A stretch of 64,000 nucleotides of DNA, taken from NCBI GenBank assembly GCA_000182565.2, contig KQ257464.1, one strand, 5' to 3'. A model generated the notes under the pieces. That model did not search any database and was not told the DNA's origin. It worked only from the letters and a program-made list of their open reading frames with translations. This DNA is from Spizellomyces punctatus DAOM BR117 (lineage: Eukaryota). Each line of letters begins with the position of its first letter. Positions within the stretch are counted from its first letter, which is position 1. Below, in pieces: positions 457 through 59,188 of this stretch. The position numbers were made by a program, and so were the translations under genes.

Positions 457-975
457 TTTGTATCATAGGACCCACCAACTTCCAAAAGACCGTCCTCGGA
501 CGAGCAGAAAGTAGCTGCAGCACTTGATCAGTTGCGTAATTTTGAAAGTATATTAGTGGAAGAAAGGCGACGATTGGATCAAGAAATGTCAAAGACTGCC
601 AAATAATATTAATACGCCTTTTCATTCGCTACGAGGTGCCTCTGAACGTTTCAAAATCATGATAACTGTATCACATGTAGTCCATAGAATGTGCATGCGG
701 AACGACGCAGCTTTTGGTGTAGAACATAGCAGCTTTTTGGTTAGAGGACTATCTCGTATCTCGTCAAGTGAACTCTAATGATTCCATGCGGAGTCTGTTC
801 AGATACTGACATTCCAAGATGAAGCTACCATAGTGCGGAAGTGATTGAAATGGCACTAGGACCCATTATTATCCGGATTAATCCGGTTAGTCATATCGCA
901 TAATCAGAACCCCCTTCTATCGCTTAATGTTTTTTTTTTTTTTCAGCTGGACCCCATTTTGCCACAATCGAGGTC

Positions 976-983
976 TATAAAAG
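976..983 (+). promoter_or_regulatory. TATA box inside ghost copy 1 (also at 3246-3253 in copy 2)
   Basis: CTATAAAAG followed by a pyrimidine-rich tract, identical in both copies. Confidence 0.5.
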
Positions 984-1079
984 GGGGTCATTACTCCCTC
1001 TTCCCTCTTTCCTCTTTACCCATCCTCGACTCTCGAAGCATCTGCGCAACGCCCACGCAGCACTCTCAAGTCCATCATC

Positions 1080-1314
1080 ATGAGAATGCCGCTCTGGTGC
1101 CGAGGACCTCGCCCTCCCAGCAAAAACAACATAACCCCTTGCAAACGCTGCTACTACTATATTGCTACGATCGCAGGTATGCATTATCTTTGTATTTTCC
1201 CACGCGGATTATCCAGTCTAATTATTCTGATCTACCTTAGTATCTGAACATCCTCCGACTAAAGAATTTCGGAATCAAGGGCTTAGTAGGATTTCTCTCG
1301 TGTGGTGGGCTTAG
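1080..1314 (+). CDS. Putative spliced 56-aa micro-ORF in ghost copy 1 (exons 1080-1176, 1241-1314)
   Basis: catcatcATG context; GTATGC...CTAAT...TTAG intron at 1177-1240; frame preserved in copy 2. Confidence 0.3.
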
Positions 1315-1399
1315 TTACCCGGTTAGAACAACCGTAATGTATTGCATGTGTAATTGGGCCTAGTAGTAGTTGGTTGGTTGTAAGGAGGGAATTACTTGG

Positions 1400-1489
1400 C
1401 TTTTCCGAACCAGTTGTCGCCGGTTTATTCCCTGGTGTAGTAGCTAGTGCCAGTTTCTGTCACCTAATACACTATCCAAGATCTCCGAC
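1400..1489 (+). ncRNA. Ghost omegaRNA 1 (scaffold ~1400-1474, guide from 1475 TCCAAGATCTCCGAC)
   Basis: CTTTTCCGAACCAGTTGTCGCCGGTTTATTCCCTGGTGTAGTAGCTAGTGCC aligns with the scaffold 3' of the Fanzor ORF (50931-50994); ends in CACTA. Guide length is inferred. Confidence 0.75.
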
Positions 1490-1611
1490 CAGCCTTATTT
1501 AACCTGATTGGATTCAGCATTGGATTGAAGTTCAACCGGAGAGAACCGTTTTACGGTTCTGCAAGCATGAAAGCAACTGTCAGATCTCACCTAGATCCTA
1601 TCAAGTAAAAC

Positions 1612-3063
1612 ATGCCATTAACAACCCTAGAACGAATCATAAACCTCAAGGAATCGTCGTCTTTGATAGTGATTGAAGACTCTACAAAACAGTCATGCGC
1701 TAGACTTTTGAAAGCTTTTGCAGCGTCAAGCATAGGTCCTGACAGGTAAGTTTCTTTGACCGTTGATTGACAAATAATCATGGCTAAAATTGCCTTGACA
1801 TCGAAGGAGGCTTGTGGTGGTGTCTGTCGAACAGGCGTACTGGAAATGGAAGCGAATACTGAATTTGGAGAGGTATGTGAAATGCTGAGGAATGCGGAAC
1901 CGATCGTTACTGACGGTACACTAAGCCTGACCATAATAGATGTATATTCCTCCTGCTTTTCATGGCTCGATCCTCCTGTGGCCGCCCCGGTCCGATCTGC
2001 TAATATCAAGAATCTGGTATCGGTAATCGAGACAGAGCTGCAAACCGGTACGCTCAATTGCTCTTTTGGATGTCGCGCTTTGGATTCACACCTGGAAATA
2101 TTCTCAGCGCAAAATGGACGAATCACTGTTCTATTTGATAGTATAAATCCGTTCCTGCTCCGTTATTCCTTGGCAACCGTGGCGCGATTGGTTAAGAGTC
2201 TATCTGCACTTGGTAGCGGTGAGGCAGCGCTGTTGGTTGATCCATGCATAACGGCAAAACCCCTCATGGATGTTATGGCGATTGCTAGATAATGTCCGAA
2301 TCATTCTCCCTTTCCACGGGGACGTACCCGTACTGGATGCGTCAGGAAATTCGCTAATACCTCCAATCGGGTCCGTCCTGGCGAACGCGGCCACAACATA
2401 TGTTACCGTCCGGCATGGAAAGGATTTTGGTATCATATTTGGACGCGATGGCGGAGCTGTGGATGTATTCGAAACTGTTGATGCGCATAATCCTGCCGGA
2501 GGAATATGTGAAGTACTTCACAAAAAGAAGTCTGGAAAGGTCCTACGTGAGGTTCGAAGCCGGGAATAATTGAGTTTGCTATTATATGAGGCGAATAGCT
2601 AAAGTGTGCCTTGCTACAGGCGGTGGCTTACAAAGTATCTGCTACGGACAGCGATCTCTTGACGTTTCACACGGTGGATGACCTGCGGTCTGTGAATGAT
2701 AGTCAGCCATCCCCCCCATCGAATCCCGCAGAGAGGACGGTATGCACAAAGACATCAATTGCGACTGATTCAATGAACCTATCTCATATATTGGTGTGCA
2801 GCCTGATCCGACCGCCAATCTTTCCTTCAACCTACGTCTAACCGATGAGCAGAAAGTAGCAAGAGCAGAGGTCGTGCTACCCTACATGAAGGCGCAAACT
2901 GCAGAAGGTCCATCTGAGACGGCAATATATTATGAGCCAGAGGATGATGATTACGATGACGAGGTACGTCTATTTAATCAGGATGATCTTATATTAGCAC
3001 ATCTGGCGCCTTTTAATATCACCATCCAATCGACAGGACCCGGATGCGGACCTGGATATATAA
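1612..3063 (+). CDS. ELP5: Elongator complex subunit 5 (Elp5/Iki1), multi-exon
   Basis: N-terminus MPLTTLERIINLKESSSLIVIEDS; C-terminal DPTANLSFNLRLTDEQKVARAEVVLPY..IYYEPEDDDYDDE|DPDADLDI* is typical of Elp5. Confidence 0.8.
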
Positions 3064-3098
3064 TTCCCACCAACGCAAATAAATACATATATACATAA

Positions 3099-3737
3099 AT
3101 TGATGGCACTAGAACTCATTATTATCCGGATTAATCCGGTTAATCATATCGCATAATCAGAACCCCCTTCTATCGCTCAAAGCGGTGAGGCATGCTAATG
3201 TATTTTTTTCTTTTTCAAACTGTGGTGAGGCGCATGCTGAAGGTCTATAAAAGGGGGTCATTACTCCCTCTTCCCTCTTTCCTCTTTACCCATCCTCGAC
3301 TCTCGAAGCATCTGCACAACGCCCACGCAGCACTCTCAAGTCCATCATCATGAGAATACTGCTCTGGTGCCGAGGACCTCGCCCTCCCAGCAAAAACAAC
3401 ATAACCCCTTGCAAACGCTGCTACTACTATATTGCTACGATCGCAGGTATGCATTGTCTTTGTATTTTCCCATGCATATTCCGAGTCTAATTCTGATCTA
3501 CCTTAGTATCTGAACATCCTCCGACTAAAGAATTTCGGAATCAAGGGCTTAGTAGGATTTCTCTCATGTGGTGGGCTTAGTTACCCGGTTAGAACAACCG
3601 TAATGTATTGCATGTGTAATTGGGCCTAGTGGTAGTTGGTTGGTTGTAAGGAGGGAATTACTTGGCTTTTCCGAACCAGTTGTCGCTGGTTTATTCCCTG
3701 GTGTAGTAGCTAGTGCCAGTTTCTGTCACCTCTACAC
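3099..3737 (+). mobile_element. Fanzor 'ghost' element, copy 2 (left TIR eroded)
   Basis: Direct repeat of 833-1472. CATA at 3094-3097, but the first ~11 bp of the left end (GTGCGGAAGTG) are missing. Right end ...CTCTACAC followed by TA (3738-3739). Confidence 0.85.
3350..3580 (+). CDS. Putative spliced 56-aa micro-ORF in ghost copy 2 (exons 3350-3446, 3507-3580)
   Basis: Same ATG, splice sites and stop as in copy 1. Confidence 0.3.
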
Positions 3738-3754
3738 TAAAAGTGCCAGCCCTG
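3666..3754 (+). ncRNA. Ghost omegaRNA 2 (scaffold ~3666-3739, guide from 3740 AAAGTGCCAGCCCTG)
   Basis: Scaffold homologous to 50931-50994; stems GAACCAG/CTGGTTT and GTGTAG/CTACAC can pair fully. Confidence 0.75.
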
Positions 3755-4265
3755 CTAGTGCGCACAGCTTGCGTTGTGTATGTGAGCGCGTGATTTTCCT
3801 TTCTCTTGCCTGCGCTTTCGAACAGATCTTGGTTCTCTTTCGTATGCATTGGGCTTGCTAGGGTCGTCATCTGATTCTGATCCTGACGATGATTCCGAGT
3901 CTGACGACTCGTCTATACTGTGTGGCTTGCGATATATGCAGCAGACTACAGAGATTGAAAAGGACCATGAGCAGCTGACAAATTCAACGTTATTCTACAA
4001 ACAGACAAGGCAGACCTTTGCTGCTTTTGCGGCCCATTCCCTCATTGTTCACAACATTTTCATCCCACTGAACTCGTCGTTCACTGAGGTTTCCGCCTCG
4101 GAGTAAGAGTGTTCCTGCATTCGGTATTTGCGTCGATGGTTGTTGGAGTAGTTGCTCTTCTTGGACTGTGATAGTTCGTGATCCAGTAGACAGAGGGGCG
4201 GTAGCCGTCACCAAGGACGAATTCGGTTCAGGTTCCGCCAGATGCGTTGTTTGTGGAGAGGGCAT
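3755..4265 (-). CDS. YPI1: PP1 regulator Ypi1/Inhibitor-3 (PPP1R11), two exons
   Basis: RRVQWDENVVNNEGMGRKSSK (RVxW PP1-binding motif), spliced to CCIYRKPHSIDESSDSESSS...PNAYER; stop at 3755-3757. Confidence 0.9.
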
Positions 4266-35129: not shown

Positions 35130-35537
35130 GATAGTTCATGAGCATGGCAAACTCGTTAGGACTCTCCTCAGCAGCTGGAGCCGCTCTTAATGGTTGAGGA
35201 GCTCCGCAGATCTCCCATTTCCCTATGCAGACGCATAGAGGTCACAACTCGCGTTACTCTTGAAATATTCGATATGAGTAAATAGGTCACAAAGTCGTTT
35301 CTGTGCATACCTCCTTGTTGACCAAAGCTTGGCCAACACAGCTGCCTTCCTGCGGCTTATCTGCCTTTGATTGTTGGACAAAAGTATGTGCCTCTCCGTC
35401 CACCTCCTTTCGACAGGCCACTCTGGCTCTTTCCTCCTCCGCTTTGAGCTCCTCAAGCTCCCTTTCCGTCAATCATGCTCTTTCTCCAACTTGGCCAACT
35501 CCTTCTCCAAGTGTTCTCGCTCCTCCTACTAGTGCAT
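35130..35537 (-). pseudogene. Coiled-coil family copy 1, pseudogene
   Basis: ATG CAC TAG TAG GAG GAG aligns with ATG CTC AAG TTG GAG GAG of copy 3; premature stops. Confidence 0.55.
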
Positions 35538-35842
35538 CCAATCTCCCACAGTTACGGGCCGTTGGATTGGAAAGATTCTGGCTTTTCTCGCCCATGGTAA
35601 ACATTCCAACCTGGCGGCACAGTCACGTACCAAGTATCTGTAACAACGTTACACGTCCTTTTTGGTCAACAAAAAGTCTTCCTGTGTTTAACAACTCGTA
35701 TCAATGTATCCGCCAGACAAGTCGTTCAAATCACAAAGAATTATGCTTGCTAATCATGTTGATGGAATGGCTTGATGAATCCATGAGTGTTTAGAATGAC
35801 GTTGGAATGGCGTGATGAGTCTATAATTGTTTAGAGTTGTCC

Positions 35843-36423
35843 TCAAATGCTAGGTTCGACGTCAAGATCCAGTTTCTTGGGAGCACCATCAGCAGCAGGA
35901 GCCGCATCATCCAAATCATCCAAATCATCCAAAGACGTCAATGGTGTCCTCAAAGCCCCCATCTCCCGATGGAGATACAATGAGGTCGCAGCTTGGGCAA
36001 CTAACGGAGCTTGACCTTGACGCTGAGATTCGAGATGTTTGCGGTTCTAGATATTGGATGTAAGGTCGAACATTGCAAAACGAGCAGTATAATAGGTATC
36101 GGTTTTGTGCTTACCGCCTTCCTGAGTTCCCTAAGTTTGTCCTCCACCGCTATCTTCTTCTTACGCAACTCTGTCTTCTTGTTAATCAACTCTATCCTCT
36201 TCTTGAGCAACTTATTCCTTGTCTCGGTCAACTCGTCCATCTTGTTCCACATCGCCCAAAGCTCCGCCCCCTTTACACGCTGGCTTTTCAACTCTAGCAG
36301 CTCAATTCTGATCGGCAATATCTCCAGCTGTAGCAAGTCATCCTCTTTGTTTACCTCGGCTGCCTCCTTCTCCAAATTTTCCAGCTCTTGTTCCAAACTT
36401 TCCCGCTCCTCCATCTTGAGCAT
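35843..36423 (-). CDS. Coiled-coil family copy 2 (two exons)
   Basis: MLKMEERESLEQEL...VEDKL, GTAAGCAC intron donor, exon 2 ...LHREMGALRTP...DDAAPAADGA...*. Confidence 0.6.
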
Positions 36424-36768
36424 TACCGTTGAATTGGAGAGAAGCTGGCCTTGATATAGTTTTTCTCGCCCATGGGCAAACATTTAGGAATGGCGGCACA
36501 GTCACATACTAAATGTAATCTGTACCAAGAATAACCATCGTTTTGGTCAACAAAAAGGCAAAGGAGTGTTTATTCATAGGATGTAGCCGCAACTATAGTC
36601 TAGAAGAAAAAGATGTGTTTAGCAGTGAACTACTGCGTCCGTAGGCTTCAACGTGGCAAAATATATGTGCGGCACTGCAAAAGTACAGATGCACGGCCTT
36701 AAAGAAACAAAATGCAAAAATTAGATGCTGGTCAATAAGATACAAAGATGCTGAATGGCATGATGAAT

Positions 36769-37339
36769 CTATGGTTGTTTAGAAATGCTGGTTTCGAAAT
36801 CCTGGGAAGCACCATCAGCAGCAGGAGCCGCATCATCCAAAGACGGCATTGGCTTCCTTAAAGCTCCCATCTCTCGATGGAAACGCAAAGAGGTCAAAAC
36901 TCTGGTCACTACCCGAGCTTGAGCTCGACGACGTTTGCGGGTCTTAATAATTATTGGATATGAGTGTTTGCAAGAAGGCAGTATAATAGGTAGGTTATCA
37001 AGTCGGTTTTGTGCTTACCTCCTTGATAAGCTTGTCCTCTGCCGCCTTTTTCTTCTGTCTCAACTCTTTTTCCCTCTGATACAACTGTTCCCTCCTCTCA
37101 TACAACTCGCTCCTCCTGTCAATCAACTCGCTCGTCCTGTCAATCAACTCTATCAATCTCTCCCGTAACTCATCCTCCCTATCCTCCAACCACGAAGGTT
37201 CCTCCACTAGTAAGCGCCGTCTTTTCAGCTCCTGCCGCTCAATGTCGACCGTTCTTATCTCCTGCTGCAGCATTTCATCCTCTTTCTTTAACTTGGCTAG
37301 CTCCTTCTCCAACTTATCCCGCTCCTCCAACTTGAGCAT
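36769..37339 (-). CDS. Coiled-coil family copy 3 (promoter inverted)
   Basis: MLKLEERDKLEKEL...AEDKL, same intron, exon 2 FHREMGALRKP..DDAAPAADGA. Confidence 0.55.
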
Positions 37340-37733
37340 CCAATCTCTTACAGTTAATGGCCGTTGAATTGGAAAGACGCTTTGTTTTGCCTTTCGCCTT
37401 TTTGTTGACCAAAACGATGGAACAGATTTCATTTGGTACGTGACTGTGCCGTTAATGTTGAATGTTTGGCCATGGGCGAGAAAGGCTATATCAATGCCAT
37501 CAATCGGTGTTTATTCATAGGATGTAGCCGCAACGGTGTGGCCTGGAAGAAGGCTTCAAAGTGGCAAAATATGTCTGCGCCAATGCATATGTACAGATGC
37601 ACGGCTTTAAGAAACTAGTGCAAAAAAGTTATGCTGGTTATATCCAAAAACGCTAAACATCTGAATGATTTGTTGCATCTATTGTTGATTAGAAAGATCC
37701 TGAACACTAGTTTTGAGATCCTGATGAGCACCA

Positions 37734-38406
37734 TCACGCGGCAGGAGCCGCGTCACCCAATAACGATTGCGTCCTCAAAGTGCCCATCTCCCGATGAAGA
37801 CGCAAAGAGGCCGCAACTTGGGTAACTACCCGAGCATGACCTCGACGCCGGGATTTGAGACGCCTGCGGTTCTTAAATATTGGATGTGAGGTTGAAATTT
37901 TGCAAGACAGCAATATAATAGGTAAGTCATAGACTTGGTTCTGTGCTTACCTTCTGGTGGACCTCCGCAAGCTCGGCAATCACCGTGTCTTTCCTCTGTA
38001 TCAACTCAAAGAGGCTATTTTCCAGCTCCCTCGTCCTATTTCGCAGCTCGATCATCCTTGTGAGCATAGCGTCCGCATTCCCGCCTCGTTCCACTACCCT
38101 ATCCCATTCAACCTGAACCGCCAGCAACCCTTGATCTGTCTGTTGCTCCTCTTTGCGTATCTCAGCCAGCTCTTTTTCCAACTTTGCCACGTCTATCTTA
38201 TGTCGCAGCTCATCCTTCCTATTTTGTAGCTCCATCATCCTTGTAATCAAAGCGTTCCCATTCCCACCCCGCCCCACTACCCCATTCCACTCAACTCGAG
38301 TCGCCCTCAACTCCTCCGCCGTCCGCTCCTCCTCGCTCTGTAACTCGGCAAGCTGCTCGCCCAAGTCTTTGCGCTGTTGCAGTGCAAGCATTCTATCCTC
38401 CACCAT
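37734..38406 (-). CDS. Coiled-coil family copy 4 (internal duplication)
   Basis: Two VEW..VV.RGGN..A..TRM.EL.NR units; same intron; exon 2 LHREMGTLRT..GDAAPAA*. Confidence 0.55.
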
Positions 38407-38789
38407 GGAGGGTAGTTTGCAGAAAAGACGCGGGCCTTGAATGTAGAATTATTGTTAGCAATTGACCTTTTGTTTTTGATCTCCCGAACCTAGAATTCAC
38501 CTCTAGGCCTGGATATAGTAATTGATCCTTTCTCGATCACGCAAAGGTGGCACGGTCACGTACCAAATGCACATCTGTAAACATCATTTTTGGGTCAACA
38601 AAATAGACAGAGGATGACAATTGGTGTTTCTTTATAGTAATAGCCTCATTTGGTTGAGTTCTGCATGTCTATTTCGATGGAATAAGTCAACAGCCCCGTA
38701 ATCTATAACAGACGTTGCTCCAGATCTACCGTGACTAAAATGACGGTCTTTAGCAAAGCTGCTGCAAACTACCCTCCATAGAGGATAGA

Positions 38790-38978
38790 ATGCGTGCGCT
38801 GCAGCAGCGCAGAGATTTGAAAGAGGACTTGGCCAAGTTACATAGAGAGCAGGCGGTATTGGACTGGCAGATTGAGGACGGGAGCCATGGACGAGATCCA
38901 ACGAAACAAGCAATGAAAGTGTATTTACAAGATGCAAAAAGAAAGACAAACCTACCCGTCATGTCGTTATTCACGTGA
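38790..38978 (+). pseudogene. Coiled-coil family copy 5, 5' fragment head-to-head with copy 4
   Basis: MRALQQRRDLKEDLAKL resembles MLALQQRKDLGEQLAEL; shares the upstream CAAACTACCCTCCAT in inverted orientation. Confidence 0.45.
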
Positions 38979-39408
38979 TATCTCCCAAATCTCTCACGTG
39001 AGATCGACAAGGGCGACCATGGAACACTCCCGATGGCTACCGTGGCTAACTCACACATCTTGAACGATTGCCTACTGTACATATCGACTATTTACAGCTG
39101 CAACTCGTTAAGCCAACGATAGAGAATCACATTAACATACTATTGCTTTTTTATTCTGACCTTTTGTTAGGCCGTACTCTGCAGCCTTAACTGCCAAGTC
39201 ACTATGAATAAAAACAAACATGCTTCCCTTTTTTCCCTTTTGCGTTTGAACGGGTGGTACGTGACTGTACCATCACACTCTTACCAGGGTCGGAAAGAAC
39301 TGGACTATTTATAAAAATGTGGGGATGAAGGAGGATCCTCCAATGCTAAAGCTAGAGATATAGTATTTACTTTACACATGCGGAGGGGAGAGTAAGTTGG
39401 AAGTCAGC

Positions 39409-39644
39409 ATGGCGGCCAATAGGATTTCCGCGGCAGAGAAGCTCAAGCGCGGATTGGCCAAGGTGGCAGAGTTGGATAAAGAGAGGGCATTACCCAAACT
39501 GTGACTTCGTTGCGTCTCAATCGGGAGATGGGGGCTCTGAGGACGCCATTGTCGTCTTTGGGTGACGCGGCTCCTGCCGCGGATGGTGCTCACCAGAACC
39601 TGGACATCAAACCTAGCGTTGAAGACTTTTCTGAACAATCATAG
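39409..39644 (+). pseudogene. Coiled-coil family copy 6, internally deleted
   Basis: Short exon-1 remnant fused out of frame to exon 2 (CGGGAGATGGGGGCTCTGAGGACGCC...GACGCGGCTCCTGCC). Confidence 0.5.
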
Positions 39645-39816
39645 ATTCATCCAAGCCATTCAGACGCCAACATGATTAGCAACTCGGATCTTCTTTTGTT
39701 AACCAGGATAATATTGCATTTGTTTGTCAAAAGCCGTACTTCGATCCATATGCAGTGTGAGAGCAACGCACATGTTCAATGATCCGTCTCCCGAATAAAA
39801 CTAGAGACACAGATGG

Positions 39817-40060
39817 CCACCTCGGAAGCCAACGACCACCCATTACCCCATCTCATCATAACGTTCTGGCTGTTTCTAGGCCACATAATCATCCCGGACT
39901 CATGTGGCGACGTACTACGATCGCCAGCCCTGTATGACTAAACACAAATCCCCACCTCGCCAGCCAACGCCCCCTATTACCCACTCATCAAAACATCTTT
40001 GGTCTGGCCTGTGCCTAGGCGATACATTCATCCCAGACTCAAGTGGCAACGTACTATGAA
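39817..40060. repeat. Degenerate ~105-bp direct repeat (39817-39920 and 39952-40060)
   Basis: CCACCTCG..AGCCAACG...ATTACCC...CTAGGC...TCATCCC.GACTCA.GTGGC.ACGTACTA occurs twice. Confidence 0.7.
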
Positions 40061-40660
40061 TAAACATAATTGAATCCTGCATTCTTGTACTACACTATGA
40101 ATAAGCAAATTGACCAAAACCACGGGTATTCTTGTAACAGATTTCATTTGCTACGTGACTGTGCCATCCATTTGTTTGCATGATCGAGAAAAGAACACTT
40201 ACTATATCAAAGCCCAGCGTCTTTGCTCTAATCCTGCTTTTCGCTAAAAAGCTGTTGGACTAGTTATTTTTGGCTCGAGCATTCAAGGTATGTACAAAGA
40301 GTAAAAGATATGGTGGGAATAACTTAAAAGGAGGGCAATGGGGGGGTCCCCCGAAGAGAGGTAACTAGTTTTGACAAGATGGATATTCCACTCACTCTTG
40401 AGCAAAGATGCAACTGAAAGGGCCATCAAGGAGCGCAAAAAGCGCACGAAGCGCGCAACACGAACGAGGTTCATTATTTTTTGAATGTATTTCACTGAAG
40501 TTTTACTGATCAAAAATTCATCTATTAGAGACATCGCCTCGAGGTTTGGCCATGGTGTTTGGACTGTTACACTATGAACTTCAACTTATAGTCACTTTTG
40601 CAATTAAGGTCCGACGTGATCAACGTCTTTTCCGGGCTTCTTCCCGTGAAGATTGCCGGG

Positions 40661-41292
40661 ATGGTGGCCGAAGAGCGGCCCCCAACGGCGGGGGCCAAGA
40701 TGCGTGCCTTGGGGGAGAGGGATAAGTTGCACGAGGACCTGGCTGCGTTGGTGAGAGAGCAGGAAGAGATGGAGGTGGAGATCCGGGCGGTGGAGAAGGA
40801 GGAGGACGAAACCAAGCAGAAGCTCGTTGCGGTGATGGCTGAGATGGGGGTGTTTGCAAAGCCGGGGCGAGAGGGGGAGGAATGGAAGGTGCTGTATGAC
40901 CGGATGAGAGAGTTGTGGGGGGTGCAGAGCGAGGTGGAGGCCAGGAAGAAAGAGCTGCAACGGAGGAGAAAGGTGGTGGAGGACAAGCTTACCGAGGTCT
41001 ATCAGCAGGTAAGCACAGAACCAAGTTTATGACCTACCTATTATACTGCTTTCTTGCAAACGTTCACCTCATGTCAAAAATATTCAAGATTCGCAAACGT
41101 CTTAGATCTCAGATTCGAGCTCAGGCTCGGATAGCGACCCGAGCCGTGACCTCTCTGCGTCTCCATCGGGAGATGGGAGCTCTGAGGACCTGCCCTTCCC
41201 CTGTGAGGGATGAGGCGGCTCTTGCCGCTGAGGGTGTTCTCGCACCATGCAAGTCCCCTGGGGAGACAGCAGGGGACGGATCCAGCAGTTGA
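40661..41292 (+). CDS. Coiled-coil family copy 7 (two exons)
   Basis: MRALGERDKLHEDL...VEDKL, GTAAGCAC donor at ~41009, exon 2 LHREMGALRT..DEAALAAEG. Confidence 0.6.
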
Positions 41293-41617
41293 GCCCAACG
41301 ATCAACACAGCTATCGGGAGGAGATGGATCCAGCGGTTGAGCCCAACGGTCAACACAGCTATCGGGAGGAGATGGATCCAGCGGTTGAGTCCAACGATCA
41401 CCACAGCTCTTGTTCTTTTGGCACGGGGAGACAGTAGAGAACGGATCCAGCAGTTGAGCCCAGCGATCACCACAGCTCTTGTTCTTTTTGCACGGGGAGA
41501 CAGTAGAGAACGGATCCAGCAGTTGAGCCCAGCGATCACCACAGCTCTTGTTTCTTTTGGCACGGGGAGACAGTAGGGATTGGATCCAGCAGTTGAGCCC
41601 AATGATCAACACAGCTA
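41262..41617. repeat. Compound minisatellite with six cores
   Basis: GGATCCAGC(A/G)GTTGAG(C/T)CCA at 41278, 41326, 41374, 41443, 41512 and 41582 (periods 48, 48, 69, 69, 70). Confidence 0.9.
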
Positions 41618-41694
41618 CCGGCAGACGACGAACCACCACCACAGATTTCGTACGTTTGGCACGGCTCAGTTTCCGTACTCCTTTGATCCAACCC

Positions 41695-42436: not shown

Positions 42437-44982
42437 ATGCAAGACCCAGAAGCACTGGGCCGAATAGCCGACGAAGCACTCGCAAACCTTACCGGTGGTG
42501 ACACGCCCTCGGACGATAGACGGCCACCCTTTCCTCCCCAACGCTATTATGTCCCCAGTCCAGGCACACTGTATCCTGTAAGTGTTCTTCATTGCGCTCA
42601 TATGCACACGTACATATGCACACATATACTTATAATGGTTTATCGGCGTTCTTTTTTTTTCTGCTCGCGTGTTCCAGTCTCCCCATCCACCGCATCCCAT
42701 GGTCATCATGCCCATTTACAATGCCCCGCCTTACCCGCCCGTTTATCCCTACGCCCGGCGCCCATCCTTTGGGCAAGAAGGTTACCCGATACCCTATGGT
42801 GGATATCCCATGGTATATGCACCGCAAATGTACAGAGAGCGCCCCCAAAAGCAGGTCGACCAGGAGGAACGAGTCGACGTGAAAAGGAGGAGCATCAGTA
42901 CGCGAAGGGGGAGTGTTCCTGGAAGGAAACAGAGTAAACAAGAGCAGAGGGTTGTCAGTACAATGGATTTGGAGGAGCGGGATGCAGAAGGTGAAGAAGA
43001 CGAGGAAGAGCAAGAGGAAAAGAGAAGAGAGAGCGTGGTGAAACCGTTCGTACGGCCAGTGGTGCAACATGTGGCTCAACAAGTGGTTCAACCGGTGGGC
43101 TTGGAGCATTCGCGCGGCCTCGTATATGGCGTACCACCTCCATCCCAAAATACCGCAATTGAAAGTCTTACCAAAAAGCGAGCAAAACCACGCGACATGA
43201 CGCGCGACAAGATCAGCATCGCCGTCAAGCCAAATGGACCGCGTGAGGAGGGATCGCGTAAAGAGTCCAATCTATCTAGAAGGAAGTCGGATGGACCACA
43301 CGCTCAAATGAACGGAGCCGAAAAGCCAAAAGCACCAGTTGCCACGCATGATCACGACGTCGAAAAGGCGACTCTCGCCTCGACACTGCAACGCGGCCAG
43401 GGATCATGCGACGAACCTGACGTATCTGAAACGCTAAATGTGCCGCACCGAGAAACGATTGGCTCTGAACAATCTGCACGCCCTGCTGAAGGGACACCCG
43501 TCTCTGAAACGCCCGCCTACGAGGACATTCGCGACGCTTCAAAGCTCACTACATCGCCGCCACCAGCACCACCACCACCGCCGCTAGTAGAGCAAGAGGA
43601 AGAACAAGAAGAAGAACTGGGAGAAGAAGAGAGCACTCGACCCAAATCAGACGACGAAAGCTACATTGACATTACAGGCACGTCCACACCCGTCCCCGCC
43701 GAATCTGACGCCGATGGAGAGGCAGACATGAACTTGGCTGAACAGTTGGTGCACATTACTGACAAGAACATACTCAAAAACCGGAAAAAGGGCACTGGCA
43801 TGGGAAAGAAAAAAGGGGGAGTCAGTACCACACGAAAGCGAAAGGCTGTTGATGGGATCGATACTGGCAAAAAGGTAAGACCATCACGACTCGTCTTTCC
43901 TACCGCTATGCATACAGACGAGCTCACAAAATGTGCATTTCTATTAGAAGGTCAAGAACCGTAAAGAAGGCATCTCTGATCCACTGACCTACGACCTCTA
44001 CCACAGTCTCACCATGGGCCGAAAACGCAAGCGTATCGACTATGCAGCAATGTCTAGGGGCCAACCTTCAAAGTCCGACGACAATGACTCGCTTATTTCC
44101 CCTAGTCTCTCAGCAACACCTTCTGAACCCGACGAGACACATCCCACCCGACCCAGCGACCCCACCAAGCTCTACTGCATTTGTCGACAACCGTTAACCG
44201 ACGCGAATGACTCGCAATTCTTTATTGGATGTGACGGATGCGATGAATGGTTCCACGGAGACTGCGTTGGTATATCCGAAGAAGATGCAAAAGGGATTGC
44301 CAAATGGGTGTGTCCCGTCTGTCAAAAAGACCGTGGATTACAAACTGTTTGGAAAGAACGGTGCAAAGCTTGTTGTAACTATATCGAGACGGACAGTGCA
44401 CGCCACGGCTATTGTTCTGACACATGCGGCATGTCCACTGCCCGTGCCCTCCTCGAATCCCTCCACGTCGTCCTCAAACCCCTTCCCAAACGAAATCCCC
44501 ATAACGACGAAATCACCCGCACTGCTATCCTCACCGCAGACCAAGTAGACCAGTCCCACCTCCTCCACCTCCGCACCCGACGCCGCACACTCATCTCCCT
44601 CCTCCGCCGGCTCGAAACCCGCCGCACCCGCATACGAGACGCAATTATTAAATGCCTGGAATTGAATACCGATGCAGGCGTGTCAGACCCATCTGGCCGG
44701 ATATGCGGGTTCGATTCACGGATTGTCACTGTGTGGGTCGTTGACCACGGCATATCCACCACTATTGATAATGACGACCCGATGGAAACCCCTACCGAAG
44801 CATCCTTGTGCAAAATCACAGGAAAATGCCCACACCATGAACATTGGGAACGGATAAAGTACGCTGAAGTTGAACTTGAGGTCCGGCAGGTTTTGGCGGC
44901 TGTTGAGGATGCTGCCAAAGAGCGGAATATGGTGCTGGCGAGTTTGAGGAGGAGAAGACAAATATGTGGACGGCCAGCGTGA
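42437..44982 (+). CDS. COMPASS PHD-finger subunit, Spp1/CFP1-like
   Basis: PHD finger LYCICRQ...FIGCDGCDEWFHGDCVGI...WVCPVC, then YCSDTCGM and ICGFDSR...KCPHHEHW. Confidence 0.8.
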
Positions 44983-48418: not shown

Positions 48419-48867
48419 GGTTGATGAGGTTCGTATCTCAAGTGAACCCCGATTACAAAAGGGATTCGTTATGATGGGGGAGAGCCTACCCAGTTCTACC
48501 TACTTTATAAAACCAAGTTACTTGCAACACTGAAAAATTACAAGGTTTTTTTCTTTGATTTTGTTTGTTTGGCGGTTCACAAATGATCTATAGCTCACTA
48601 AAAACTAGCGTACTATACCCTTTACGCGTTTCCTCCAATTTTGTTCTTCTTCTGCTGGATTGGTGCTAGAATTCGGCTTTTGCAAAAAAGATGGGGGATT
48701 TTTGTATCATCAAAGAATGCCGTCGTTGTTCAACGAAAACGTGACAAGCACACTCTGGTGTGCAGTCCACCACGCCAAAGTTATCTGCCAAGATTTCTGC
48801 ACACCCAATACTGCGCGTACAAGGGCGGATCTTTGTTGGAACGTCACCGCGCGTGTGTGTATGCATA

Positions 48868-48898
48868 GTGCGGAGCCGATGGGTATTGGCACTAGTAC
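48868..48898 (+). repeat. Left terminal inverted repeat (~31 bp), preceded by TAM CATA (48864-48867)
   Basis: Its reverse complement GTACTAGTGCCAATACCCATCGGCTCCGCAC matches the visible part of the right end. Confidence 0.85.
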
Positions 48899-48972
48899 AA
48901 AGATTCCAACCATTTTAATCATAATTTTACTCGATTTAGACTCATGAACTATGGTTTGATCCAAAAAAATCC

Positions 48973-48979
48973 TATATAA
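48973..48979 (+). promoter_or_regulatory. TATA-like box upstream of Fanzor
   Basis: TATATAA ~50 bp before atcatcATG. Confidence 0.45.
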
Positions 48980-49029
48980 GTTGTCGTGCCCATTTTCCCA
49001 GGCTTTCATCTTTTTCCACAGATATCATC

Positions 49030-50916
49030 ATGCCACCAAAAAAGAAGCAAAAGCTTGAAAACCCTACTTGCTTACATACCTGCAACAAGACTTCCTTTGC
49101 AAAAGCTTTCCTGCCAAACGACATCTACCGCCAACGGCTTTTAGATTACATCGCCATCATCCATCAACTTGCTGACCATGCTTCCCACGCTCTCAAATTC
49201 TACATCCTATCTGCACCATCCTTTCCCACGTTAGATCAAGATACAATCGAAGCGATTCTCTATCTTCTCAACAAAGGAGAGGCTTGGCAACCAAAAGCTG
49301 ATGCAAAGAAGGCGCTACGTGGATGCTTGGTGCCATATATTCGTCGGTACTGCCACATCGTCAGCTTCGTTCATCCAAATCTACAAAAAGAGCAGCAGTC
49401 AATCAATTACCTGACAGCGAGTATGATGACGAACCTGAAAGTCAACGTTCAAGAGCATTTCATGCAGATGCTCCTTCGGTATATCAATCTGCGGCTCGAT
49501 GTGAAGGGACAGAAGCAGCGACTGCCACTGAAAAGCGATGCACGGAAAGCTTTCTTTACTCGACTACGCTACTTAAAGTCAGTTTTTCTTTTTGATATCG
49601 TGCCCGAGTCGCTGGATGACTTGACCGCTGAAGAGAGTGAGCTTCTAGAAGAGATGTGGTCCTTCATTCCCCTTTCCGACCAGCCGCTCGCATATTCGGT
49701 TGCTGTTGACCCTCTCGCTTTCTTTCCTGCTTACTGCAAACTCTCTGTGCTGTATGAACGACATGGCTTCCGTCGGTTCAGCGCAATACCTCTTCGTCGG
49801 TCTCTGATTCAGTCCCATATTCGCATCGACACGGTCATCCTGTACCAGCATATCCTTTGCATCACGCGACGGGAAGCGGAAACTGTTGAAAAGGTCGACT
49901 TATGGTTGCGCATCTGTAATCTGCGGAACAAGGCTTTTAGATCTCGTCGTGGAATGTGTTTTGAAGGCTCGATCACGACAGACGGTACCTCGGTGTCAGT
50001 TTACTTGAAACATCCTGAAGCTGACAAGTATGGAAAGCGCAGCGGCGGAGGGAAAAAGTCAGCAAACACAATGGAGGCAGAGGTTAAAGCGCAATATGTG
50101 GAGAAAAACTTACCTGCTTGTCGAGTAGCAGAGAATGTTGTTGTTATCGACCCAAACAAGCGCGACATTCTCTACTGCCAAGACAGCATTGGTACAACAT
50201 TTCGCTACACCGCCAACCAGCGAGCCATGGAGACAGGTAGCCGTCGACAGCAAAAGGAACGACAGCAGATGAAGAAGGGGGAAATTGACCTCATAGAATC
50301 ACGTATCCCTAGCCACAAAACAATGAACCTCATGGATTTTACTCGCTACCTTCTCGTTCGCCGCGCGGATTCGGATCGTCGCAAGGAATTCTACTCACAT
50401 CCTGCCCACACGCGGTGGAAGTGGCACTCCTTCATCAATCGGCAGCGAAGCGAATCAGACCTCATAAGCGCCATGCGCAACAAATACGGTGAAAACTTTA
50501 CCGTTGTGATGGGTGATTGGAGCGACGCCGGTCGAACTGCCAGATTTCAGACCTCATCAAAGACAAAAGGTTGGCGCACCCTCTTTAAGCGGAACAGGAT
50601 CAACTGCTTCCTTCTCGACGAGTACAAGACCTCATCTGTCTGCCCTCACTGTTCATCCGATGACTTCCTTGAAAAAGGCTTCAAAACACGACCTCATTCA
50701 AGACCTTGGCGACGACGAGAAGGCAATGTTGAAAAAGTCCATGGATTGCTGGGTTGTACCAACCCTAACTGTTTGCAGCAAGACTGGACATCGGGAATGC
50801 GCTACTGGAACAGGGACACACTGAGCACCTGCAATATGCTGATGATCGTGCAATCAATTATGGATGGACACGGTAGACCAGAGGTGTTCAGCAGGAGTGT
50901 TCCAGCCGTAGCGTAG
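49030..50916 (+). CDS. Fz1: Fanzor1 RNA-guided DNA endonuclease (eukaryotic TnpB/Cas12 relative), 628 aa, intronless
   Basis: NLS-like PPKKKQK; TDG motif; RuvC I VVIDPNKRD (D374), RuvC II LLDEYKTSSVC (E531), zinc finger CPHC...CTNPNC, RuvC III WNRD (D596). Closely resembles SpuFz1 as I recall it. Confidence 0.96.
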   Translation: MPPKKKQKLENPTCLHTCNKTSFAKAFLPNDIYRQRLLDYIAIIHQLADHASHALKFYILSAPSFPTLDQDTIEAILYLLNKGEAWQPKADAKKALRGCLVPYIRRYCHIVSFVHPNLQKEQQSINYLTASMMTNLKVNVQEHFMQMLLRYINLRLDVKGQKQRLPLKSDARKAFFTRLRYLKSVFLFDIVPESLDDLTAEESELLEEMWSFIPLSDQPLAYSVAVDPLAFFPAYCKLSVLYERHGFRRFSAIPLRRSLIQSHIRIDTVILYQHILCITRREAETVEKVDLWLRICNLRNKAFRSRRGMCFEGSITTDGTSVSVYLKHPEADKYGKRSGGGKKSANTMEAEVKAQYVEKNLPACRVAENVVVIDPNKRDILYCQDSIGTTFRYTANQRAMETGSRRQQKERQQMKKGEIDLIESRIPSHKTMNLMDFTRYLLVRRADSDRRKEFYSHPAHTRWKWHSFINRQRSESDLISAMRNKYGENFTVVMGDWSDAGRTARFQTSSKTKGWRTLFKRNRINCFLLDEYKTSSVCPHCSSDDFLEKGFKTRPHSRPWRRREGNVEKVHGLLGCTNPNCLQQDWTSGMRYWNRDTLSTCNMLMIVQSIMDGHGRPEVFSRSVPAVA

Positions 50917-50930
50917 ATTGGTTAGATTAG

Positions 50931-50994
50931 CTTTTCCGAACCGGTTATCGCCGGTTCAATCCCTGGTGCGGGTGCTAGTGCAATACCCATCCGC
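50931..50994 (+). ncRNA. Fanzor omegaRNA scaffold (3' end and guide hidden by gap)
   Basis: Starts 14 nt after the stop; hairpin GAACCGG-TTATCG-CCGGTTC, then AATCCCTGGTGCGGGTGCTAGTGC-AATACCC; overlaps the right TIR. Confidence 0.88.
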
Positions 50995-51094
50995 NNNNNN
51001 NNNNNNNNNNNNNNNNNNNNNNNNNNNNNNNNNNNNNNNNNNNNNNNNNNNNNNNNNNNNNNNNNNNNNNNNNNNNNNNNNNNNNNNNNNNNNN
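50995..51094. other. Assembly gap (100 N)
   Basis: Run of N. Confidence 1.
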
Positions 51095-51268: not shown

Positions 51269-54200
51269 TTATCCTCCACCCCTCCTCCGCTCTTGCAAAC
51301 GTCCATTCATACCCCTGGACACTGGCGCCCACCGCGGTGAAAGCTGCCCAGATCGATTCGATCCCCGGTACGCAGTGGACTCATTGGAATATGTACTTGT
51401 GCTCTCCCCATAATACCGGCCTGAACTCGACACCCGCTGCCGGTCTTCGTACGTATCCCGTTCGGTGCGATCGTCTTCTCGTGTGTATGCGTCCCGAAGA
51501 CTTCGTCGTTCCCTCAACATTTCCCTCCCAGAGTCTCTAGCAGGCTCTCTGGCCACCTCCCACCCCCGCTCCTCCTCACCCTCCCGCACCCTCAAATGAT
51601 GCAAAGAAGCCACCGCTTTTGCTAACCTCTCATTCTCATTCTCCAAAGCCAATTTCGCATCTTTAAGCCGTATCACCTCCTCCTCCAATTCCCTCATACG
51701 TGGGTCATCCTGTTCAAGGTCCAACAAATTCTCCCAGCTGCCTACCGCGCTACGTGATAAAATCGGTTCCGTGTCACCACAGAGTTCTGCGAAAAAATGC
51801 TGTTGGCTTTCGGATAGGGCTTGTTTCCAGTTACGTGCTAGTATCCTATATCATTCGATCCAGTCAGTGATGGTTTGGCACAAACTCCTTTGTGTTTATA
51901 CACGTACCGCATTCGAATGAGACTCCTCACGACATCCACACATCTCTTCAACTTGATAACAGGTTTGTCGGACCCGACGCCAGAGGGTTCAAGCCCCACT
52001 CCTGCCAATGTCGCTCTGTGACTTTGTACAGTTAAAGAGAGATACAATTTCTGGTACTTGAGGTCTGCTCGCCAGGTCGACAGCCTGTCAACCAGTGCGC
52101 GGAGGTAGAGAACCTCGGATATGAGCTGACGGCACTGTTCCTTAATACTACAAAAAAAGCACCCCCACAGATTCGGTGAGTACGATATAAACACTCGTAA
52201 CAAACACAATACAAAAAGGGGAAGCTTACCGAGACATGTCCACCTTGGCCACTTTGTCATCATTCTCCCCGAGAACAGCCATCACATCATGCCCAGACCC
52301 AGATACATCCCCAATGGTGTTCTTCAACGTCTCTCGTAACACAACCATCATCTCCCGACTACTCTGCCTGATCTTTTTCAATTCCTTTTGCAACAAGCCC
52401 ACCTCATCTCGTAAGCCTTCATCTCCCGCATCGCTTGGCGACTGGGTTTTCGCATCAGAAGGATGCCGACGGTCGACTAGACGCCCTCGCTCCTTTTCGA
52501 GCCGCAACACTTGAATTTCAGCACTACGCCGTGCGTCTTCCAAATGCTGAACACGTCCATCAAGCCGTCTGATTCGGTCATCCTTCTCAAGTGAAACCTC
52601 TTCCAAATGTCGTATTTGAGTTTCACCTTGCAAGATTTTTTCTTCCAGTCGTTCCTTGACACGACGGAAATCATCCACAATGCGATCTCGCTCTCTTTCC
52701 AAAGCGTCCACAAGTCCTTCAAGTGCCTTGCGCTCAGCAGTGTGCATCTCTTCTTGTGCACTAGCTGCCTCTTGATGCTCGAAAAACTGATTGTTCAGCT
52801 TATCTTCCAGTAGTTTGACATCACTTCGAGCCATTTCCGCATCCTTTGTAGCGGCATCCAATAAATCCACAAGCTCATCAAATTCTTCTCGCATACGAGC
52901 CTGAGCTGCTCGAGCTTTATCTTGTGCATGCATAGCATCCCGCTGCGTTCGGGTGATCAACTCACGTAATGCGGTATTCGCTTCCAGTTCATGTGTCCAC
53001 ACTCTTCGAAGCTCGTCCAACTGTCGCTGGAGCACCTTTTCATTTCCGTTCTGCCGTTGCGTAGACGTTGATTCTTGCGTCATGGATTGGAGAGCATCCT
53101 TCAAGACTTGTGTTTGCATGGCATGGTCCTTGAGCAATGCGTGTGAGTTCTCCAATTGCCGCTGGTACTGCTCGGCTGCTGCTGCCTTTTCGTACAAATC
53201 GGCATACTCGCCAGGCGTAAGGTGATAATTCCCTTCATGGTCAGAGACAGGACGTCCTAATCCACCTTTTGCTGTCGTGTCAATTAATGCCCCCACGGAA
53301 CTGAGTTCCTTTCCAAGAATGACATGCTGATCCTCGACATCATGCAGCTTTGTAATCAAAATATTTAGATCGTCCAAAATCCGCTTTGGCAGGCGCTCAT
53401 AGCCGCCCACTGTCGTGCTGCGCAATAGATCCAAAAATCCATCTTTCCTAGCTACCAGTGCAGCAACCGCCGACTGATAGTCTCCGACAACACCAACCAC
53501 GTGAGAGACTAGGCTTCGCATGTCCGCGATAGAGCTTGTGGCCACGTTCCCGGATGGTGTACGCTTCGCAGGACGCCTAACACGGCCCCCACGAGCCGCT
53601 AACCCATCCTCTTCGTCGTCAGCCTCATATGTATCAGTAGTGTGCCCATCGCGGTTACTCCGCAAATAAAGAGCCTTTTCCTCTGCCAATCGGGCGTCAA
53701 AATCTGCCGCCATGTGTCGAATCTGAGCAGACTTGGCTTCCACCATCTCGCGCAGACCATCAACTTCTTTCTTGAGCTCGTCCCGTGCTATTGCGGCGTC
53801 TTCCAATTGCAATACCCTACTTTGAAGGGCAGTGATTTCCTCTTCCAGTTTGACCACGAGTGCCCGCTTGTCGTCTAGCTCTTCCAGTACCAAATTGTTC
53901 CTTCGTAATTCAATCTCGTTTTCTCGTAGTACTTCATCCGCTTCTCCAAGAGCTCTCTCCAAGCTCTGGACGTCAGCTTCTAAGGTACTCGTTCTGACAT
54001 GTAGCTCATCAATCATCCGCGTTTTTTCCCGTACTTCACTTCTCATTAGGTCTCTCTCCTCAGTCAGCATCGTTACACGATGTCGCAATTGGTCGACGGT
54101 TGCTGCTGTCACGGGCGGCTGAGATAAATCTTTGGAGTGCAGTGTGTCATGGCTCACAGGCGACGTTGCACTGGTATCTGACATCTGGCTCTCGGACACT

Positions 54201-57200: not shown

Positions 57201-59188
57201 GCCTTTTCTTTGGTCAGCTGAGTAATCTGCTTTTTCAGATCCGCCACTTGATCAGTTAAATCTCGCATGGTTTCCACGAGTGTGTTGGTATCTTCTGCTG
57301 CTCTCAACTCCCGTTCCTTGATGTTTTCCTTCATCAGGTCCATTTCAGTAAGGAGCTGCTCACGTTCCGTGCGTAAATATTCTACGTCTGATTCCAACTG
57401 TTGGAGTTTACTTTCAGCCTCAGCATTGGCCGAGAGCAATGTGGGGTACTCGTTCCGCACACGTTTCACCTCCTCCTCCAACTCACGTACTCGTATTGTC
57501 ATCGCTTCCTTTTCTCGTGTCGCAGCAGCGCTGCGCCCGCTCATATCCTCTAGCAGCTTCCGCATGTTTCCTACGACCGTGACGTGTTGCCGTCGTATTG
57601 CTTCATTGTCTTGAGCCAGTGTCTGAACTTGCATCTGTAGCTCGCCCTGTGTGCTACTCAGCTCTTCCATTTGCGATGCGTGGGCGTCACGGTCTGCCAT
57701 CAATGTCGCATTTTCGTCGCGTAATGTAGTGACCTCTGCCTTGCATTGCTCGTACTCTTCAGTGATGGCCTGCAGCTCCTCCTTCAGCTTTTGCACCTGA
57801 GAAGTCAATTCGTCTCGTTCTAAAACCAGATCAGCATCGGGCACTGTGGAGGGCCCACTAGACGCCGCTGTGGCAGCTTTGCTTGCTAACAGCTCGTTCT
57901 CCGTAGCAAGGTCGCCATGCGCTTTCTCTAACACAGCCAGCTGCTGCCTGATTTCCGTAATTTCGGACGCTTGCTCCTTGGTAGTTTCTTTGGCATTTGC
58001 AAGCTGATTGCGCAAGTCTTCGATCACTCCCGTTTGTTCTTCGGACGACGTGGCTGCTCCCTGCCCAGCCACCGCCTGCATCCGTTCCAGCTCGCCCCGT
58101 ACTTCCTCCAACTCTGTTGCTTGCTGCTGAATAGTATTTTGTGCACTATCCAGTTGACTTCTTGTCATCTCTAGATCGGCATTCAACTGGGCGCTGTCAT
58201 GATCTACAGATCCGGGTACTTCTGCCGATTGCAGCTGAGAAAGCTCCAACTCCAATTGCTTTATCTTACTCTCGCCCGCAAGCTTCTCCTTTCTAAATAT
58301 CTCCGCATCCTCCCGCATCTGCTGTATCATCTCCAGTGCTTCATCTGAATGTTGTTGTTGCTCCGTGCGCCCTTGTCGCAGATTTTCGTTTTCCTCCTTC
58401 AGCGCTTCCAGCTGCTGTGCCAGTGTGTCCGTTTCATCCAATCTGGTTCGCAGTTGCTGAAGCTCCCGACTAAGCTCGGTACGCTCAGCTTCTGCTTCTG
58501 TTGCAGCACTGCGAGCTTCTTCGAGGTGCGCTGTCAGTTCCGCAATCCGCCCGTCCATATCCGCTGCGACTTCCGCTTTCTCCTGTGGAACACCATGCAC
58601 CTCGAATTGTTTCATCTTCTCCTTGAGCTCCCGATTCTCGTTGGAAAGCTCCCGCATGCGTCTCGCCAAATGTTGATTGTCTGAAGCAAGCTCCCTTACT
58701 CGCTGTATCAGGTCTGGCTCGGCGGGTGGAGGTGGTGTAGCTATTCTTTGTACATTGGGAGGAAATGTGGGCACAGGCGAGCCAGATCTGGGTGGATCCG
58801 TTCGGTTTCGCAGACCTGTGAGGGTTCCCAGTGGCGACGCTGACCTGTTCCAAGACCGCATGAGCATCTTTCTCTCACTTAGAGCCATCCAGAAGAAATC
58901 TAACACATTCTACCACTCCACTTTCACATCCTAGACATACCTCTCATCAGCTGCGATACTGCTCGTGGATAACATACTTCCTGTTCGCGGCCGGCCGCCA
59001 GCATCCGCATGTAAATTCTCCACTGAGCTTTCCGGAGACACAACTCTCGAGTCGGGTGGCGACCCAGCCGTTTCGCTCGGCGTAGCACTCGTGGACCGTG
59101 GGAGGCCAGCAGCTCGTTGCTTCTGGTATTTTGCCAGCTTCTTTTTTGCTGCCGCGAGCTTTTGCTCGCGCATCGATGACGTGTACAT
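51269..59188 (-). CDS. Giant centrosomal coiled-coil protein with PACT domain (pericentrin/AKAP9/Pcp1-like)
   Basis: >2200-aa coiled-coil exon; N-terminal REQKLAAAKKKLAKYQKQR; C-terminal WRADLKYQKLYL...KLKRCVDVVRSLIRMR|ILARNW. Confidence 0.75.

Follow-up and report, generated by a model that had tools for sequence, protein, structure and literature searches.

How does an element that carries the ends of a Fanzor transposon, and no nuclease gene, persist at its site in a eukaryotic genome? The question is raised by a locus near the start of the window, that is, the 64,000-nucleotide stretch of contig KQ257464.1 of Spizellomyces punctatus DAOM BR117 (GCA_000182565.2) analysed here; published work is cited from the parts of each source that were consulted. 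A sequence-only reading had described a 640-bp element bounded by CATA and TA that would supply a guide in trans against its own empty site. The boundaries proved exact. On the + strand, the CATA TAM (829..832) contributes its TA as the left copy of a TA target-site duplication, the element runs from GTG to CAC (833-1472, 640 bp), and the right TA lies at 1473-1474; both junctions are clean, without a scar. The left terminal inverted repeat (TIR; 831..860, +) is of the ghost L1 type. As had been claimed, it is similar to its counterpart in the Fanzor element at 48864, but it is nearer to the ghost-type TIR, and it also resembles the reverse complement of this ghost's right end. No ORF of at least 150 aa was found inside 833-1472, bearing out the absence of a Fanzor ORF, and the interior matches the conserved ~550-nt ghost interior. 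The combination of TIRs and a TA target-site duplication is typical of Tc1/mariner/IS630 elements.

Saito's study (PMC10432273) described 134 ghost loci with 30-nt inverted repeats preceded on the left by CA, 550 nt of interior sequence and a scaffold of 75 nt with CACTA at its end; no transposase was found there between the inverted repeats. The window ghost has inverted repeats homologous to those of Fanzor elements and CA before the left one. It is a copy of this published kind, ghost Spu-1 (PMC10432273), and the locus is an ordinary one for S. punctatus. At least 40 ghost copies were found in the genome, where the left-TIR pattern had 115 matches compared to 0 for a control pattern, and the recurrence of the element is thus not due to chance. 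Among other copies, one (L018 1165-2067) contains a tandem internal duplication of ~340 bp, and another (L156) is inserted directly behind the right end of a further ghost.

The neighbouring gene is ELP5, encoding Elongator subunit Iki1 (1612..3063, +; Pfam Elong_Iki1), whose ATG at 1612 lies 137 bp after the end of the ghost, in agreement with the ~140 bp of the sequence-only reading. Directly after its stop codon, in the same orientation, lies a second ghost (3103..3739, +) that shares 91% identity with the first; its left TIR is missing the outer 19 bp, its scaffold is intact (3664-3739), and together the two ghosts bracket ELP5. An Rfam scan of 700-3900 returned no family reaching its gathering score. 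Elsewhere, the window holds a cluster of direct and inverted repeats with a ~900-bp period and coiled-coil-like ORFs (35200-41650), tandem units of 48/69 nt (41248-41622), an ORF with a PHD finger and a weak C-terminal CpG-binding match (44014-44982, +) and a 2220-codon intronless coiled-coil ORF with weak Pfam matches only (52226-58888, -).

The right end of the window ghost contains a 75-nt SpuFz1-type ghost omegaRNA scaffold (1400..1474, +) that overlaps both the right TIR (1445-1474) and the right TA and ends in CACTA, as in the published ghosts. A covariance model was built solely from the 11 scaffolds that follow Fanzor ORFs. Positions 1398-1474 aligned over all 76 positions of this model with 46.6 bits (E 8e-10), confirming that the right end is like a Fanzor omegaRNA scaffold and providing the covariance-model alignment for which the sequence-only reading had asked. 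The alignment contains paired changes in stem 2 and one A-C mismatch in stem 1, and by eye the scaffold differs at ~4 positions from ghost scaffolds that worked in cells.

In the published system, four ghost scaffolds were functional with SpuFz1, the functional SpuFz1 omegaRNA was 88-90 nt long and reached 14-15 nt into the flank, and SpuFz1 cut the non-target strand after base 16-17; ghost action in trans was already proposed in the discussion (PMC10432273). The premises of the sequence-only reading, namely a CATA TAM, a guide taken from the 3' flank and the existence of ghost loci in Spizellomyces, agree with these rules (PMC10432273). With the register set by the published scaffold rule, the predicted guide consists of the 15 bases 3' of the right TA (1475..1489, +), TCCAAGATCTCCGAC. 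The 5' flank of the window ghost is the SpuFz1 TAM, and in the filled allele no TAM precedes the guide match. Elsewhere in the genome no perfect CATA-plus-guide site was found, the best having one mismatch, and the empty allele would therefore be the sole perfect target. The TAM is preceded, at a distance of 9 bp, by CAT and the first 8 guide bases (810..820, +). Family-wide, such an 8-nt repeat occurred in 1/99 elements (null 0.22, p 0.21), and it was rejected as a signal.

A possible source of nuclease in trans, judged from its sequence, is the SPu-1 Fanzor element of the window itself (48864..50994, +), which has CATA, a left TIR and a 628-aa ORF (49030-50916). The 49030 protein is a close relative of the solved S. 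punctatus Fanzor, and by eye its visible 400 residues read the same as Saito's FZID20, whose TAM was measured as CATA (PMC10432273). The scaffold of this element is interrupted by an assembly gap of 100 N (50995-51094), and the bases that follow the gap look partly inverted.

RNA data showed that the ghost interior is a transcription unit. A TATA box (976..982, +), kept in most copies, lies 104 bp before an ATG at 1080. In run X22, RNA depth climbed from 34 to ~20,000 in the bin after the TATA box, consistent with a start at ~1010-1040, and stayed at ~20,000 from the 1009-1152 bin to 1440, while depth over ELP5 was below 1. The transcript comprises the portion of a 56-codon mini-ORF that lies in exon 1 (1080..1176, +), a 64-nt GT..AG intron (1177..1240, +) that is spliced in reads of the family, and an exon 2 leader (1241..1399, +) in which the mini-ORF ends at 1314 and which continues into the scaffold. 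Depth past 1440 fits a transcript end near 1474, in a library unsuited to small RNA. Splicing was seen in 442 X22 reads that skip 1177-1240 and a further 3,688 that end in spliced sequence, as well as in one contig of run X12, from another study; the transcript is assigned to the + strand because the intron is GT..AG on that strand. Ghost copies have in common the TATA box, a pyrimidine-rich leader and an ATG in the context of the Fanzor ATG, and the intron position is identical in two interior subtypes. No intronless copy was found among the loci examined.

Of the 26.4 million X22 reads, 284,361 matched the two window ghosts at 90% likeness, which is a family signal, most reads carrying alleles of other ghost copies: at position 1120, at most 276 of 9,424 reads fit the allele exclusive, among 110 elements, to the two window ghosts. 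Runs X10 and X12 had small shares of ghost reads, uninformative as to habitat or strain; run X1 retains introns and looks like DNA. At the level of the family, the ghost interior is therefore a TATA-driven, spliced and very abundant transcript. The mini-ORF was rejected as a selected peptide: a synonymous excess was not significant (P 0.16 and 0.24), exon 1 contained stops in 8/46 and 8/39 copies, and C-termini vary by frameshift. C>T and G>A changes make up about half of the variants in the exon 1 alignments, the pattern expected if methylated repeats were deaminated.

The claim that this locus supplies a guide in trans against its empty site was upheld in part. It accords with the published rules and with the family-wide signs of homing presented below; on the other side, the joint of the empty allele was not seen in 4 sequencing runs, and the reads, from a library unsuited to small RNA, did not show RNA over the guide at 1475-1489. 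The mechanism is plausible, with its support at the level of the family. A somewhat unlikely alternative is that the family homes while the window copy has been functionally retired, a recombinant stem 1 and a low transcript share leaving it with no working guide. Consistent with this, stem 1 holds the A-C mismatch, folding of the scaffold alone is weak (z -1.56, compared to -4.39 for the neighbour ghost), the predicted fold with the guide attached pairs the guide with stem 1, the covariance score is the lowest of the three scaffolds in the window, and few reads are of the locus type. Against retirement, however, the TIRs, target-site duplication, TATA box, splice sites and stem 2 are all intact, and it may account for up to ~3% of the family reads, a level well above that of ELP5.

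Family-wide evidence came from a second kind of ghost. Five of the first 30 ghost loci depart from the SpuFz1 scaffold and end in another module of ~180 nt, which has 27 matches in the genome; ~25 ghosts combine the common body with this type-B 3' module, and one module lies directly 3' of an intact SPu-3 ORF. By its sequence, this second nuclease is the SPu-3 of Bao and Jurka 2013, reported with 2 copies and a TA target-site duplication (PMC3627910), and its protein is 23% identical to the Fanzor of the window (49030). Removal of a 63-nt GT..AG intron, at a position where homologues have no insert, yields a protein of 607 aa that keeps the D, E and D residues and four cysteines (zinc ligands) and displays the Fanzor1 motifs (DPG in RuvC-I, a shifted glutamate before CxxC, and the RuvC-III aspartate). 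Its AlphaFold model, with a mean pLDDT of 48, was set aside. No SPu-3 relatives were found in viral contigs.

At the junction, type-B ghosts retain trimmed remnants of the last SPu-3 codons, indicating that the ghost body captured the 3' end of SPu-3. The module does not fit the SpuFz1 covariance model, and from its position behind the SPu-3 ORF we infer that it is a putative SPu-3 omegaRNA. Its folding is not unusual (z -1.25), and two deletions in it remove just the tip of the long stem. The intact SPu-3 (G000:C7 72780-75069; L058 4781-7070), source of the type-B module, has as its left arm an inverted, internally deleted ghost fragment. A decayed second SPu-3 is represented by a 5' gene piece with its own left TIR at CT|TA (L141 about 1900-2150) and, 11.7 kb further, by a degenerate module (L142 3737-3821; G000:C8 486.4 and 498.2 kb).

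The exchange of modules was accompanied by a change in the 5' flank. Counts were restricted to elements with both ends called, which excluded 21 of 120 right ends; the register of L023 was reset by hand. CATA preceded 61/71 ghosts with a SpuFz1 scaffold and 8/8 Fanzor elements, across four left-TIR types. Type-B ghosts showed CATA in 0/20, while 19/20 had T at -3 and never G at -4 (HTTA-like; Fisher 2e-17), and one copy lay at CA-GA. The difference persisted among elements that share the L1 left TIR, where CATA was found in 49/55 with the SpuFz1 scaffold compared to 0/20 of type B, and T at -3 in 0/55 compared to 19/20. Among all SpuFz1-scaffold ghosts T at -3 was seen in 1/71, a scar artefact; L144, scored as ATTA in the flank count, in fact has CATA followed by a scar. 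As a held-out set, 37 elements were chosen by the left end, 33 of them with a recognised scaffold. CATA was present in 30/33 and T at -3 in none, bringing the CATA count for SpuFz1-scaffold ghosts to 91/104 over both sets; the single held-out ATTA element is cut off just before the module. Among TA sites in the window, 7% follow CA and 22.5% follow T.

The CATA and HTTA motifs are confined to the 5' side. A separate A/T bias at -6/+4 is symmetric and common to both types (57 and 59 of 71; 18 and 19 of 20; background 57%), a pattern expected from a transposase dimer. On the tree of ghost bodies, type B occurs in dispersed positions (12 changes compared to 13.3 after shuffling), and a single type-B clade was rejected. 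Linkage decays along the body (permutation p <0.0005), and together with this scatter it indicates that ghost bodies are mosaics that recombine freely. The 5' flank thus switches with the RNA module and not with the TIR; as the cause, the nuclease served by each module is suggested, with HTTA as the TAM predicted for SPu-3.

It is unlikely, in our assessment, that SpuFz1 acts alone, with the type-B module a dead passenger, HTTA the preference of the naked transposase and CATA the product of SpuFz1 homing; the reading of the window ghost would then be unchanged and the two-nuclease part would fall. The type-B sites are partly palindromic, with A at +1 in 12/20, the module shows next to no covariation (1/55 pairs), and the intact SPu-3 sits at CATA and not at HTTA, which counts against the flank rule and for which the foreign left arm offers an explanation only after the fact. 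However, T at -3 (19/20) and A at +1 (12/20) are asymmetric, and T at -3 hardly occurs in SpuFz1-scaffold ghosts. Two type-B copies bear scars after HTTA, spliced SPu-3 has kept its D, E, D and four cysteines, and type-B copies preserved the full 180-nt module while trimming the coding remnants, all of which count against SpuFz1 acting alone.

The same flanks could arise if, besides refilling empty sites, Fanzor-omegaRNA directed an IS630/Tc1-type transposase without TIRs to new TA sites that bear a TAM; an exchange of modules on the common promoter-bearing body would then shift the target of a eukaryotic transposon from CATA to HTTA. On that view, the TAM match of ~90%, compared to 7% among TA sites, would result from directed insertion and not from survival. 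For IS607, insertion was suggested to be looser, with TnpB selecting afterwards for sites that bear a TAM (Yoon et al., bioRxiv 10.1101/2023.08.09.552727). We regard directed insertion by Fanzor as doubtful, to the same degree as the action of SpuFz1 alone.

The junctions of damaged copies bear directly on whether empty sites are cut. In 10 of 124 elements, the left end was replaced by the TAM and 4-16 bases of the element's own guide target. When left and right ends were paired at random, 1.4 such scars were obtained on average (maximum 6 in 1000 shuffles); scars of at least 7 bases were present in 7 elements compared to 0.07 under the null. Five further right ends had failed the scaffold filter, and 4 of them were added to the scar count. 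All eight scars of the SpuFz1 type followed CATA and both scars of type B followed HTTA. In the longest, that of L067, CATA and 16 bases, one of them mismatched, adjoin a right-end remnant of 59 bp, and no scar exceeded the SpuFz1 cut position of 16-17. In addition, single-base changes at the first TIR position equalled the first guide base in 8/11 cases (3.8 expected, p 0.008). From general double-strand-break repair, scars of this kind are expected when a cut empty allele is repaired from the filled allele with an incompletely trimmed non-homologous tail. As no intronless copy was found among the loci examined, the scars do not stem from reverse transcription. They provide indirect evidence of copying back into cut empty sites. 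Miniature ghosts of ~60 to 255 bp that keep both ends or one were also seen (L062, L067, L191, L192, L209).

That transposases alone set the flanks, either as two separate enzymes or under the influence of the right TIR, with the scars being one-ended faulty insertions and Fanzor uninvolved in siting, appears distinctly unlikely. The right TIRs do differ between the types, and the search for a transposase covered one family (PF13358). Nevertheless, four TIR pairs with the SpuFz1 scaffold all lie at CATA, type B shares the L1 left TIR, and the motif is one-sided and equal to the measured SpuFz1 TAM. The scars, moreover, are in-register replacements that come after the TAM and never extend beyond 16 bases. 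Mirror scars at the right junction were found in 0/99 elements and in 0/37 of a left-ascertained set, with only 3 elements right-truncated. One-ended insertion is somewhat weakened by this comparison; the elements were mostly collected via intact right ends, which would hide mirror scars, and the mirror control is small and biased.

The transposase search returned as its sole intact DDE_3 match an HTH-DDE ORF (2 matches of 4 candidates), which keeps D, D and E with some conserved positions changed. The ORF follows one ghost by 180 bp and is ~2.5 kb away from a second, and both ghosts face it; it has no TIRs of its own, and ghosts cluster elsewhere too. By its sequence it is a lead only as a candidate ghost transposase. 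At this locus (G000:C3 530171-535499; L104, L105, L059), the transposase and a 294-codon ORF with a weak SUKH-3 match stand between inward-facing ghosts in a composite-transposon-like arrangement. A transposase-Fanzor link via relatives was rejected, a Fanzor lying beside a related transposase in 0/20 metagenome loci; several contigs with relatives look like giant-virus or other contigs. On one metagenome contig, a 1.3-kb stretch with 40-nt inverted ends (TAGTGG...CTACTA) lies near such a relative (L122 4400-5716). Seeding of new sites by related guides was not supported, with 18 pairs compared to 11.4 expected for SpuFz1-type ghosts (p 0.053) and 1 compared to 1.4 for type B.

Taken together, the flank switch and the scars support a model, probably correct in our judgement, in which ghosts are non-autonomous TA-inserting elements held in place by Fanzor homing in trans. 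The window ghost would be such a TA-duplicating TIR element with a self-contained guide-RNA gene. Its own TATA promoter would produce a spliced Pol II-type RNA, as seen across the family, with the omegaRNA scaffold in the 3' part. The scaffold and ~15 flank bases would be excised and loaded onto SpuFz1 encoded elsewhere, for example at 49030, a step proposed because ghost scaffolds work with SpuFz1 in Saito's assays (PMC10432273). By the published rules, the RNP would cleave CATA|TCCAAG..., the empty allele, at 16-21 bases beyond the TAM; in the filled allele ACTA precedes the guide match, which would protect that allele from cleavage. With the filled allele as template, repair would copy the ghost back, as the family-wide scars suggest. 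Given homing, elements would persist solely at sites whose 5' flank matches the TAM recognised by the nuclease that their RNA serves, presumably CATA for ghosts with the SpuFz1 scaffold and HTTA for those with the captured SPu-3 3' module. New sites would tentatively be ascribed to a transposase, probably of the Tc1/mariner/IS630 type, acting in trans. The benefit of homing to such an element is debated, because excision by DDE enzymes already tends to leave a footprint or a break (PMC13565253).

Use of the ghost by the host as a regulator, its guide or promoter controlling ELP5 or other genes, is very improbable: although the ghosts flank the gene closely on both sides and 30 genome sites, compared to 9 for a control, match the TAM and 12 guide bases when at most 2 mismatches are allowed, no site is perfect, the guides of different copies are unrelated flanks, the guide target on the filled allele has no TAM, no read-through was seen (ELP5 depth below 1 compared to 20,000 for the family), and neither position nor RNA depth gave evidence of a link between ELP5 and ghost function.

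The module swap amounts to a natural experiment: left TIR and body are held constant, the scaffold is exchanged, and the site motif changes along with it. Together with scars that end at the known cut, this suggests that Fanzor cleaves empty sites within its host by means of ghost RNAs that act in trans. The ghost family therefore bears on the biological role of Fanzor, called unknown in the consulted part of Saito's report (PMC10432273). By sequence, the model predicts that SPu-3 is a 607-aa Fanzor with an RNA of ~180 nt and an HTTA TAM. The interior, a native Pol II cassette making guide-RNA precursors that accounts for ~1% of reads in one library, may be of use for guide expression.

How does the ghost family compare with known systems? 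The ghost class and the idea of action in trans are already published, and the elements described here share with ghost Spu-1 the 30-nt repeats, the CA before the left one, the ~550-nt interior and the 75-nt scaffold (PMC10432273). As consulted, that account is without promoter, intron, expression, second RNA module, second flank motif or scars; type-B sequence is present in its ghost file at no fewer than three places and is not singled out there (PMC10432273). The second nuclease has the same left sequence and protein start as SPu-3, which was given as one exon with X at stops, whereas the 63-nt intron restores 607 aa here; no omegaRNA, TAM or ghost derivatives of SPu-3 are described in the consulted text (PMC3627910), and two SPu-3 peptides are absent from 8 of Saito's supplement files (PMC10432273). 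Type-B ghosts with the SPu-3 module, the flank switch and the family-wide scars are new relative to the literature searched, in which they were not found in print; most subscription papers and Repbase lay outside that search. The parts consulted of Yoon et al., Jiang et al., Xu et al. and a 2026 review (PMC13565253) likewise contain no second ghost type, flank switch or scars.

The proposed cycle resembles the restorative homing of TnpB in IS200/IS605 and IS607 elements, with a flank-derived guide, a TAM at the 5' junction, a cut at the empty site and copying back; the same review regards homing as shown for the prokaryotic TnpB and IscB and not for Fanzor (PMC13565253). Unlike TnpB elements, the ghosts reside in a eukaryote, have TIRs and a TA target-site duplication, keep RNA and nuclease at separate loci and use one element body for two nucleases. 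Stowaway-type MITEs of the Tc1/mariner group are short, non-coding elements with TIRs and a TA duplication that occur in many copies and are mobilised in trans. Ghosts are like them in being short and numerous, with TIRs and a TA duplication, but differ in carrying a promoter, an intron, a guide-RNA scaffold and a one-sided flank motif.
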